Assembly (NCBI GenBank): GCA_963748135.1
Contig: CAVVHY010000014.1
Coordinates: 13,188-77,187 of the forward strand
Origin: an uncultured Gammaproteobacteria bacterium
GTDB lineage: Bacteria > Pseudomonadota > Gammaproteobacteria > JBGSLN01
DNA: 64,000 bases
Direction of reading: 5' to 3'
Shown here: positions 34,985-36,501 of the stretch, in pieces
How positions within the stretch are numbered: position 1 is the first letter of the stretch
Layout of the letters: every line of letters starts with the position of its first letter
Translations under genes and position numbers: made by a program
Notes under the pieces: model-generated
The model's database searches: none
Told to the model about the DNA's origin: nothing
Seen by the model: the letters and a program-made list of their open reading frames with translations, nothing else

Positions 34985-35242
34985 ATGGCTATCAATCAAG
35001 CTGAAACTAAAAACTCAAATAATGAAAATCAATTTGGAAGTAACTTAATCAATCAAACCTTGCAAGATAATAAATTGGAAGGTCGTCAAGCTTGGGTTAA
35101 ATCCAGCTGGTCAAAAAGCACCCGCGGTCTAGATTTTGAGAAACCAAACAAACCTGGGTTTTTCAAACCAGCGGCTGAGGCAGAACTACAGGATGCTGAA
35201 AACCAAGAAAACCAAGTTGCAACACCAAGACTTGGCGCTTAA
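34985..35242 (+). CDS. Candidate RiPP precursor peptide (85 aa) with four aromatic-x-Lys triplets
   Basis: Strong SD AAGGAG (34973-34978) lies 6 nt upstream of the ATG. The N-terminus is N/Q/E-rich. Residues 37-61 (nt 35093-35167) read WVKSSWSKSTRGLDFEKPNKPGFFK. A radical SAM gene follows 68 nt downstream on the same strand. Confidence 0.6.
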   Translation: MAINQAETKNSNNENQFGSNLINQTLQDNKLEGRQAWVKSSWSKSTRGLDFEKPNKPGFFKPAAEAELQDAENQENQVATPRLGA

Positions 35243-35255
35243 TTTACCTGTAATC

Positions 35256-35287
35256 ATAGGTAGGGCAAGCGGTGATGCCCTACCTAT
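35256..35287 (+). terminator. Stem-loop between the peptide gene and the radical SAM gene (attenuator/partial terminator candidate)
   Basis: ataggtagggca (35256-35267) pairs perfectly with tgccctacctat (35276-35287), with an 8-nt loop. The element starts 14 nt after the peptide stop. It is followed by only a short att, not a strong U tract. Confidence 0.4.
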
Positions 35288-35310
35288 ATTGTGAATTTAA
35301 ATAGGATGAC

Positions 35311-36501
35311 GTGATGGCACAGATAAATCATTTAGAAATTATTTTAAAGATTGTTGAAGTATGTAATATCAATTGTAGCTATTGCTATTTTTTTAATGGC
35401 ATTGATGATAGTTTCAAAAAGCATCCCCCTTATATCAAACAAAATACGGTTACAGCAGTTGCTAATTTTCTAAAAGATGCAGTCTCTGAATTAAATGTTC
35501 GTACTATCAAGATTGACTTACACGGAGGCGAACCATTAATGCTTAAGCCACGAGACTTTATTCAATTGTGTACGACGTTTCGTGAAGTCTTATCCCCAGT
35601 AGTCGAATTAGAGTTTGTCATCCAAACCAATGCCATGCTTATCAATCCTACTTGGATTGAAATCTTTAGGGCGTTTGAAATTTATGTTGGGGTGAGCCTA
35701 GATGGCCCCAAAGTCTATAATGATATCTATCGTATCGATAAACGGGGGAGTGGCACTTATGATAGAGTACTTAAAGGCGTTCATTACTTAATGGAGGCAG
35801 CAGCAAAGGGTTTGATGCCAAAACCAGCGGCATTAAGTGTCATAAATCCCGAATTTAGTGCAGTGGAAATCTATCGTCATTTTGTTGATGGATTGGGTTT
35901 TGAAGTCTTAGACTTTTTGCTCCCTGATTTAACATATGATCAAGTTAAACTTGATAAGACGTTTTCTGCACCTGCATATGGCAATTATTTAGTTGCATTA
36001 TTTAACGAATGGACCAAGGATGATAATCCTAATATTAACATCCGGATTTTGAATTCAACCCTATCAATGATGTTAGGTGGCAAAACAAGTCTTCACGGAT
36101 TTGGTGAAGGCTCGGCCAGTTATGCGGCATTCACCATTGCAAGTAATGGTGATTTAGCCCCAGATGATACCTTACGCTCAACCAAACCTGCCTATATGCA
36201 AACCGGAATGAATGTGTTTAACACATCATCTAAGGAATTTCTTGCTGCGCCCTTCTTTGAAACCTTCGCCAAGTATGAAACTACTTTACCAAGCGCCTGT
36301 GAAGATTGCCAATGGCGTCAAATTTGTCGTGGCGGGATGTTAATTAATCGCTATTCTGAAGCAGATTTATTTAGTCGAGAATCTGTCTTATGTGCTGGCT
36401 TGAAATTATTTTATCGTGAAGTCTATGACTTTTTAGTTACAAATGAAGTACCAACGACAATGATGAGAAATATTATTACGACTCATCCTCTTTATCAATA
36501 A
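35311..36501 (+). CDS. Radical SAM enzyme with C-terminal SPASM/twitch-like Cys cluster (peptide-maturase-like)
   Basis: 396 aa. CNINCSYC (CxxxCxxC) at 35362-35385. GGEPL motif (DLHGGEPLML). C-terminal CEDCQWRQIC...VLC (Cys330/333/339/361; 36298-36393). The overall layout resembles anSME/FxsB/XyeB-type enzymes. The ATG at 35314 may be the true start. Confidence 0.85.
   Translation: MMAQINHLEIILKIVEVCNINCSYCYFFNGIDDSFKKHPPYIKQNTVTAVANFLKDAVSELNVRTIKIDLHGGEPLMLKPRDFIQLCTTFREVLSPVVELEFVIQTNAMLINPTWIEIFRAFEIYVGVSLDGPKVYNDIYRIDKRGSGTYDRVLKGVHYLMEAAAKGLMPKPAALSVINPEFSAVEIYRHFVDGLGFEVLDFLLPDLTYDQVKLDKTFSAPAYGNYLVALFNEWTKDDNPNINIRILNSTLSMMLGGKTSLHGFGEGSASYAAFTIASNGDLAPDDTLRSTKPAYMQTGMNVFNTSSKEFLAAPFFETFAKYETTLPSACEDCQWRQICRGGMLINRYSEADLFSRESVLCAGLKLFYREVYDFLVTNEVPTTMMRNIITTHPLYQ

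Follow-up and report, generated by a model that had tools for sequence, protein, structure and literature searches.

What does an 85-amino-acid (aa) peptide gene followed by a gene for a radical S-adenosylmethionine (SAM) enzyme make in an uncultured gammaproteobacterium? The pair lies near the middle of a 64,000-nucleotide (nt) stretch of contig CAVVHY010000014.1, here called the window, and a first-pass annotation had proposed that it encodes a novel peptide made on the ribosome and then post-translationally modified (a RiPP), with several cyclophanes. The features on which that proposal was built, from the small open reading frame (ORF) with its Shine-Dalgarno sequence, through the gap of 68 nt between its stop and a GTG at 35311, to the enzyme with its Cys motifs and the aromatic-x-Lys triplets of the peptide, were all found as described (Table 1). 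By comparison with characterized systems, the pair is very probably a two-gene RiPP cassette of the triceptide, or three-residue cyclophane, type, this being a predicted reaction class. It has the two components of pathways with an enzyme that forms three-residue cyclophanes (3-CyFE): a CxxxCxxC radical SAM enzyme of the cyclophane clade and, next to it, a precursor with aromatic1-X2-X3 motifs. Family, fold, and a conserved peptide thus bear out the multicyclophane pairing, but "novel" overstated it: triceptides became established as a class of RiPPs in 2020, with ∼3900 predicted pathways and at least 10 characterized maturases (PMC11499958), and the Trp-Ser-Lys ring that a XyeB-family enzyme makes in xenorceptide A2 has been proven by nuclear magnetic resonance (NMR) (bioRxiv 10.1101/2024.12.16.628070). 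The cassette adds a member to a known class and is not a new kind of system; what is specific to its sub-branch is a cassette of minimal size, a precursor built as leader, core, and follower, and perhaps partner genes.

Among NCBIfam models, the best curated family for the enzyme is XyeB of the XYE system (TIGR04496), with 312.3 bits, followed by YhhB (263), FxsB (228), the sulfatase maturases (176.5), and DarW (134); the DarE, DynA, and DarW models match at 97 to 134 bits, DarE at 97.5, and the Pfam match is Radical_SAM. This ranking places the enzyme in the clade of cyclophane maturases and not with the sulfatase-maturating enzymes, as the first-pass annotation had supposed, and all scores lie below the curated cutoffs of the named families (450 for XyeB, 445 for YhhB, 650 for DarE, 349 for the sulfatase maturases). 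A metagenomic locus with a clear XyeA-type precursor (L004; ...SGGWVNAFARWSRRW) served as calibration: its enzyme scores 577 bits against XyeB and is ∼34% identical to the window enzyme, whereas the relatives of the window enzyme score 301 to 364 bits. XyeB is the best family for 69 of the 69 aligned members, none of which comes near the cutoff (best E = 5.5e-110). True membership in XyeB, DarE, YhhB, or FxsB was therefore rejected. In a neighbor-joining tree, the window enzyme falls with P0003 and P0004 inside the group of these relatives; the sister of the whole group is true XyeB, and YhhB-like and other enzymes lie further out. Because scores below the cutoffs, calibration, and tree agree, sequence comparison makes the enzyme, within the cyclophane-synthase clade, a member of a sister group of XyeB that is uncurated.

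Relatives are numerous in the protein database (3594 at E ≤ 1e-20), the closest nonidentical one being 54% identical. Named sources include Parachlamydiaceae, Rhabdochlamydia, a metagenome-assembled genome (MAG) labeled Wolbachia endosymbiont, Sphingobacteriia, Thaumarchaeota, Niveispirillum, and proteobacterial MAGs, and the proteins are annotated only as "radical SAM protein." A scan of genome contigs with the single enzyme as query gave one locus (L001); a metagenome scan with one short pattern derived from the alignment gave mostly distant families, which served only as XyeB-like and YhhB-like comparators.

The fold points the same way. The closest solved structure, by sequence and by fold, is the radical SAM domain of ChlB, a triceptide synthase in which this domain is fused to an alpha-ketoglutarate-dependent HExxH domain (9gm3/9gmc); it is the best match in the Protein Data Bank (9gm3, E = 1.3e-40, versus 5e-22 for an anaerobic sulfatase-maturating enzyme [anSME]) at 26% identity. 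An AlphaFold2 model built from 69 homologs (mean predicted local distance difference test score [pLDDT] of 94.9) superposes on 9gm3 in Foldseek with template modeling (TM) scores of 0.88/0.93 at 2.1 Å. Unlike ChlB, with its HExxH hydroxylase domain and its Tyr motifs (YDR, for example) as substrate (PMC11499958), the window enzyme stands alone and faces Trp/Phe-x-Lys motifs. With a radical SAM core that begins at residue 10 (CteB aligns only from CteB residue 100), the enzyme has no N-terminal RiPP recognition element (RRE). ChlB, according to the titles of its entries, likewise binds its leader without one.

All eight cysteines of the enzyme are invariant in 69 homologs. Three form the SAM-binding CxxxCxxC motif, and four are the predicted ligands of an auxiliary cluster near the C terminus. 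The canonical seven-Cys SPASM pattern (Cx9-15Gx4C...CxxCx5Cx3C...C) is not present, since only C330, C333, C339, and C361 are found, and residues 236 to 329 hold no conserved Cys in the 69 homologs. In an alignment to anSME, these four match the CxxCx5C motif and the distal Cys, Met stands in place of the Cx3C cysteine, and no Cys of the enzyme aligns with the three upstream anSME cysteines. From published anSME structures, we take the retained four to be the ligands of AuxII and the missing four to be those of AuxI. The enzyme is thus predicted to hold a single auxiliary cluster, in line with the earlier proposal. The absence of the first SPASM half, which had also been noted there, holds as well, but not as a difference from xye loci: ChlB, the true XyeB of L004, and three YhhB-like enzymes have the identical CxxCx5C...x21...C pattern without AuxI cysteines. 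We therefore rejected the single cluster as a distinguishing novelty, the pattern being found across the clade. The eighth cysteine, C87 (nt 35569 to 35571), belongs to neither cluster motif; the 69 homologs keep it without exception, and true XyeB has it too, but ChlB and anSME do not.

These results also bear on whether the enzyme is a maturase of the upstream peptide at all, rather than an anSME-like or other modifier of proteins or metabolites beside a small ORF that is unrelated or no gene. anSME (4k36 to 4k39) is the second structural neighbor of the model, with the same radical SAM plus C-terminal Fe-S domain fold (TM score of 0.80) and aligned AuxII-type cysteines, and no RRE, protease, or transporter accompanies the pair. 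The anSME score is only half the cutoff, however, every AuxI ligand of anSME is missing, and no sulfatase gene lies nearby, the sole "Sulfatase" Pfam match being a weak one inside iPGM (60363 to 61910). Where a sulfatase substrate gene would be expected, there is a conserved peptide gene behind a strong Shine-Dalgarno sequence. Identity as a sulfatase maturase was thus rejected, and we hold any non-RiPP role of this kind to be highly improbable.

The case for a precursor is made by its conservation. In all 11 homologous-enzyme neighborhoods with usable upstream information, a same-strand ORF of 61 to 93 aa lies upstream of the enzyme gene, which agrees with the expectation that the small ORF is conserved; in one of them (L089), an ABC transporter gene sits between the two. 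The ORF remains syntenic and motif-conserved next to enzymes merely 41 to 54% identical. We read this conservation from gene neighborhoods because sequence searches recovered almost no relatives: among 5.8 billion proteins, a single-sequence search with the 85-aa peptide matched only itself, and a six-member precursor profile retrieved six peptides, one of them new (P0126). The precursors of L083, L084, L085, and L087 have 27 to 41% peptide identity and the same leader-core-follower architecture. When the closest precursors are anchored on the first core Trp (Table 1), they have in common a leader motif, L-I/V-x-Q-x-L, ∼16 residues ahead of that Trp, which resembles A-L-T-Q-S-M-L-D of XyeA leaders, and a polar/acidic follower with an L-G-A end. 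W-x-K-S-[ST]-W-x-K-S is kept in L083, L085, and L087, and its equivalent in L084 is WGRWTK. Since core, leader, and C-terminal motifs are kept at such low identity, the precursor appears to be under purifying selection.

Four aromatic-x-Lys triplets (WVK at aa 37 to 39, WSK at 42 to 44, FEK at 51 to 53, and FFK at 59 to 61) had first drawn attention to the peptide. In 100,000 composition-preserving shuffles, at least four such triplets arise by chance with P = 2e-4, and four inside 25 residues with P = 1e-5; no other small ORF in the window carries the double W-x-[KR] pattern. Conservation of the core outweighs these statistics as evidence, and it divides the four triplets: the two W-x-K motifs recur throughout the closest precursors and FFK[PQ] in three of the five, whereas FEK occurs only in the window. 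A 52-aa ORF with a TTG start in another frame (35136 to 35294, plus strand) covers the last part of the precursor gene as well as the intergenic hairpin and is presumed spurious.

In more distant members, the cores come to resemble the C-terminal ones of XyeA (L088, GWINAFAKVGWRNRF; L086, GWEAWVAWNKSF), and the Niveispirillum precursor of L092 has other aromatic-x-x repeats, SFDL five times and then WSR. Several of these loci are of interest in their own right. At L086 (positions 3183 to 3464; a MAG labeled Sphingobacteriia, GCA_017304685.1), the precursor beside a 50%-identical enzyme ends in ...ADGWEAWVAWNKSF directly before the stop. Three Trp-x-x triplets follow one another in it, and its C-terminal W-x-K-S-F has the form of the pentamer with which xenorceptides and darobactin bind BamA. 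L092 (3713 to 9218; the cultured Niveispirillum sp. KHB5.9) has a full cluster around a 41%-identical homolog, in which the precursor (...YGGDDASFDLSFDLSFDLSFDLSFDLSWSR) is followed by genes for an S9 peptidase, an HlyD-like protein, and a C39-peptidase ABC transporter; this strain offers a convenient experimental way into the enzyme subgroup. L090 (1929 to 4644; a Parachlamydiaceae MAG) encodes a 62-aa peptide (...GYQGKWAHLAFSRNQC) and then two radical SAM enzymes in tandem. In the Thaumarchaeota MAG of L091, the homolog adjoins LanC-like, HopA1, and APH-like genes, and Ns upstream make its precursor unreadable.

Which reaction would such a pair carry out? Of the characterized relatives, the XyeB-family enzyme SmcB forms Trp-C6-to-C-beta rings on WVN and WSK in ...GGWVNAFARWSKSF (bioRxiv 10.1101/2024.12.16.628070), and HtkB, which also accepts WTK and FTK, joins His-C2 to Lys-C-beta on HTK (PMC11499958). 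By analogy with these enzymes, we propose the following sequence. The precursor would be made in excess over the enzyme, a ratio probably set by the intergenic hairpin, and the RRE-less enzyme would recognize the leader, which carries the helix-like L-I/V-x-Q-x-L motif. Reductive cleavage of SAM at the C18/C22/C25 cluster would give a 5'-deoxyadenosyl radical that takes H from the position 3 Lys of W-x-K, at C-beta. The carbon radical could then attack the Trp two residues upstream on the benzenoid ring of its indole, at C6 if the enzyme follows XyeB-family products, and rearomatization would pass an electron to the single auxiliary [4Fe-4S] cluster (C330/C333/C339/C361). We would expect rings, each costing 2 Da, at W37-K39 and at W42-K44; a ring at F59-K61 is probable and one at F51-K53 doubtful. 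Two or three three-residue cyclophanes joining Trp/Phe to Lys-C-beta are thus the most likely outcome. The analysis shows gene structure, family placement, fold, the Cys pattern, and a conserved precursor with its motifs; the reaction itself and what we say of regiochemistry, ring number, processing, export, and biological role of the product we infer.

The closest parallels are found in the XYE system (XyeA/XyeB; xenorceptides, XncB, SmcB). Both enzymes have an RRE-less architecture of ∼390 aa, and they agree in their cysteines, C87 and the motif for the single auxiliary cluster among them. Trp-first aromatic-x-x triplets come after an L-x-Q-x-x-L-D-like leader motif in both precursors, which also have the WSK ring motif and a W-T/S-K/R-S motif. 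They differ in that XyeA-type leaders end in Gly-Gly (L004 and L018, ...SGG followed by WVNAFARWSRRW) and XyeA cores are C-terminal (...W-x-K-S-F, of the aromatic-x4-aromatic-x2-aromatic type), whereas the window precursor has no Gly-Gly ahead of an internal core with a 24-aa follower. xyeC, xyeD, and xyeE (Asp protease, HlyD, and protease-transporter) accompany XYE but were not found among the scanned ORFs of the window, and the XYE hosts are Enterobacterales, whereas the window host is uncultured and probably host associated.

"Darobactin-like," the description given to the WSKS of the peptide, is apt: type A xenorceptides, which target BamA, have a conserved C-terminal W-T/S-K/R-S-F comparable to darobactin. 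The window peptide shares the W-S-K-S of WNWSKSF at aa 42 to 45 and, as expected for this class, would share the Trp-to-Lys-C-beta ring type. Its W-x-K-S motif is internal, in a tandem pair, and followed by a long follower, whereas the form in xenorceptides and darobactin is C-terminal; the window core has neither the W-N-W ether context nor a C-terminal Phe, and the window lacks the darBCD transporter genes. DarE also has an N-terminal extension, and the window enzyme aligns with the DarE profile only from position 71. From the His-modifying synthases (YhhB, HtkB, and HaaB types), whose YhhB is the second-best family, the window differs in its substrate: YhhA-like precursors (L019, L022, L026) end in HNRHNR, while the window precursor has W-x-K. 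Lys selectivity at position 3 and a link to C-beta are shared with HtkB (PMC11499958).

Several points weigh against the triceptide assignment. The enzyme falls under every curated cutoff, and the closest characterized enzymes, XyeB and ChlB, are distant from it; the precursor family is tiny; FEK is unconserved, and FFK is kept in just three close precursors. For cyclophane formation by this pair, the argument is one of comparison, and relatives within the clade form other links: C-O in DarE, C-N in DynA, and Trp-C5 to Arg-C-gamma in WprB (PMC11851443). Homology therefore does not settle the connectivity. The same substrate and enzyme class might give ether (C-O), C-N, or C-gamma links, larger rings (e.g., Trp-Trp or W37...K44), or extra oxidation, given that DarE, DynA, and DarW belong to the same superfamily, that the enzyme lies outside every curated equivalog, and that the W-x-K-S-S-W-x-K spacing resembles fused-ring cores. 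We regard such an outcome as unlikely, since the nearest families (XyeB, YhhB) and the nearest structure (ChlB) all give three-residue aromatic-to-C-beta rings and the DarE and DynA models score three times below XyeB.

A further point against the assignment is that the internal core comes with a follower but with neither a Gly-Gly site nor a protease or exporter, which leaves no basis for defining the mature product. Pfam and NCBIfam scans of the window ORFs (those of at least 120 aa outside the 19- to 30-kb dcw stretch, in which the others are mur/fts genes by position) found no ABC exporter or peptidase-containing ABC transporter (PCAT), no HlyD, and no plausible leader protease, as the first-pass annotation had said of the adjacent genes; the sole window peptidases, PilD and an M23 EnvC-like protein, are encoded far from the pair. 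This absence, the fragmented murC on the contig, and the retention of such genes at L092 (S9 peptidase, HlyD, C39-ABC) and L089 (ABC) would fit a decaying remnant that has lost xyeCDE-like protease and export genes and makes no functional product. Yet both ORFs are intact, all eight invariant cysteines are kept, and the minimal architecture recurs in L083, L084, L085, and L087 with conserved motifs, which implies purifying selection; we give decay very little credence. Because other members of the group carry export and protease genes, we read the minimal two-gene format (window, L083, L084, L085, L087) as a trait of the sub-branch.

Table 1. Coordinates of the cassette, its predicted sites, and adjacent genes in the window, with the precursors aligned on the first core Trp
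Feature	Position (nt)	Strand	Remarks
Shine-Dalgarno AGGAG of precursor gene	34974-34978	+	6 nt ahead of ATG; sequence reading
Precursor peptide gene, 85 aa	34985-35242	+	ORF list; public gene call likewise 85 aa
Precursor leader, ∼aa 1-36			Contains NLINQTLQD motif
Precursor core, aa 37-61	35093-35167	+	WVKSSWSKSTRGLDFEKPNKPGFFK
Double Trp-x-Lys core, W37-V-K39-S-S-W42-S-K44	35093-35116	+	Predicted sites of two three-residue cyclophanes
FEK triplet	35135-35143	+	Window only, unconserved
F59-F-K61	35159-35167	+	Possible third cyclophane site; FFK[PQ] recurs at the equivalent position in L083 and L084
Precursor follower, aa 62-85			Acidic/polar; C terminus PRLGA
Intergenic stem-loop	35256-35287	+	12-bp perfect stem, 8-nt loop; directly 3' of precursor stop
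Radical SAM cyclophane-synthase-like maturase (predicted)	35314-36501 or 35311-36501	+	395 aa (ATG) or 396 aa (GTG)
CxxxCxxC (C18, C22, C25)	35362-35385	+	Predicted SAM-binding [4Fe-4S] ligands; invariant in 69/69 homologs
C330-x2-C333-x5-C339...C361	36298-36393	+	Four predicted ligands of a single auxiliary cluster; invariant in 69/69 homologs
PAS-GerE (LuxR-type) regulator, 257 aa	36476-37249	-	Pfam GerE and weak PAS; convergent, 26-nt 3' overlap with radical SAM gene
Multidomain single-ORF protein, 3394 aa	37350-47534	+	Pfam and NCBIfam
Window precursor around core			...NLINQTLQDNKLEGRQA, then from first core Trp WVKSSWSKSTRGLDFEKPNKPGFFKP...PRLGA
L083 precursor around core			...NLINRILNERDETIPSS, then from first core Trp WTKSTWGKSTKPDHVSPNFFKP...PTLGA
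L084 precursor around core			...RLIEQALDDAQGKNRST, then from first core Trp WGRWTKAARS...SFFKQ...
L085/L087 precursor around core			...QLVTAVQREAAEIPG, then from first core Trp WTKSTWGKS[ST]R...SL[SG]A
L001 precursor around core			...GIG, then WSKDSPWSRNGWSADWTRHY

Of the two possible starts of the enzyme gene, the ATG at 35314 is the likelier: AGGA lies 7 nt upstream of it (35303 to 35306), and the public gene call is 395 aa. Between precursor and enzyme genes, the 81-nt stretch that contains the stem-loop folds at -23.1 kcal/mol (z = -3.0), and none of 200 shuffles folded as well. At the equivalent place, L083, L084, L085, L087, and L088 also have hairpins, whose sequences are unrelated; U-tracts follow two of them. 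A terminator scan did not call the window stem-loop because it lacks a U-tract; it is likely an attenuator or mRNA stabilizer that favors precursor over enzyme, as is common in RiPP operons.

Downstream, the convergent PAS-GerE regulator may control the cassette, a tentative suggestion. A full-length homolog (32% identity) is encoded directly upstream of the L083 precursor, and full-length support for the LuxR linkage comes only from L083: GerE regulators near L088 share just the helix-turn-helix domain with the window regulator, and the L084 neighbor is unrelated. The 3394-aa protein beyond it combines an adenylation (A) domain of the nonribosomal peptide synthetase type (TIGR01733, 146 bits), a weak PP-binding match, a hydrolase-like stretch with GWSFGG, a NACHT/P-loop region, WD40-like propeller matches, and a C-terminal O-methyltransferase with a dimerization domain. 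An A-domain protein adjoins the pair in L083 too (30% identity over 428 aa), and in L084 the A-domain neighbor has AMP-binding, thioesterase, and TPR domains. The differing gene order in window, L083, and L084 argues mildly for a functional link to the pair, three loci being too few for more.

These neighbors allow a broader reading, in which W-x-K-S-x-W-x-K-S peptides form a distinct triceptide branch of host-associated bacteria and are not exported, protease-released antibiotics; the full-length or follower-bearing peptide would work with the PAS-LuxR regulator and the A-peptidyl carrier protein (PCP)/NACHT/WD40/O-methyltransferase megaprotein. On this reading, the peptide might serve as a signal or be tailored further into a hybrid product, its exit from the cell would be by general or host-directed secretion without a dedicated ABC transporter or PCAT, and it might still carry W-S/T-K-S, the pharmacophore with which darobactin and xenorceptides bind BamA. 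The conserved acidic/polar follower (with its P-x-L-G-A end), the lack of exporter and protease, and the eukaryote-like genes are consistent with a distinct branch but no proof of it, and we consider it quite unlikely as a whole.

If the predicted chemistry of the triceptide assignment is true, the uncurated XyeB sister group (at least 69 members, 38 to 54% identity), several of whose members come from Chlamydiae and other host-associated or uncultured lineages, would take its place among the cyclophane synthases of mapped function. Triceptides would then include a minimal format of two genes with no exporter and a leader-core-follower precursor, they would gain Trp-x-Lys-Ser scaffolds akin to the W-S/T-K-S-F pharmacophore that lets darobactin and xenorceptides bind BamA, and the subgroup, now named only "radical SAM protein," would merit an NCBI-type annotation model. 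Our understanding of the mechanism of such enzymes would be unchanged even so.

The cassette lies in a block of ∼38% GC (35 to 39%; ∼33 to 48 kb) between the dcw cluster (∼44% GC) and bipA. Besides the peptide/radical SAM pair, the regulator, and the megaprotein, the block holds a TPR protein, and its GC content would fit an accessory island that entered between mraZ and bipA. Elsewhere in the window, two adjacent genes encode eukaryote-like Ser/Thr protein kinases (53005 to 54720 and 54908 to 56671), and another encodes an ankyrin-repeat protein (12021 to 13052). Judging by the ankyrin, eukaryote-like kinase, and NACHT/WD40 genes, the gammaproteobacterium may be host associated and Legionellales-like; a literature search on Legionella with cyclophane or RiPP found nothing relevant. 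In the dcw cluster, murC (21298 to 22645, minus strand) is split into ORFs at 22427 to 22645, 22110 to 22430, and 21298 to 22002, the last of which holds only the end of Mur_ligase_M and Mur_ligase_C; either assembly frameshifts or a pseudogene would account for the breakage. Finally, 20 kb from the RiPP pair, a gene on the minus strand (56755 to 57621) encodes a SpoU-family rRNA methyltransferase with a TSNR_N domain, the N-terminal domain of thiostrepton-resistance methylases (54 bits; cutoff of 28).

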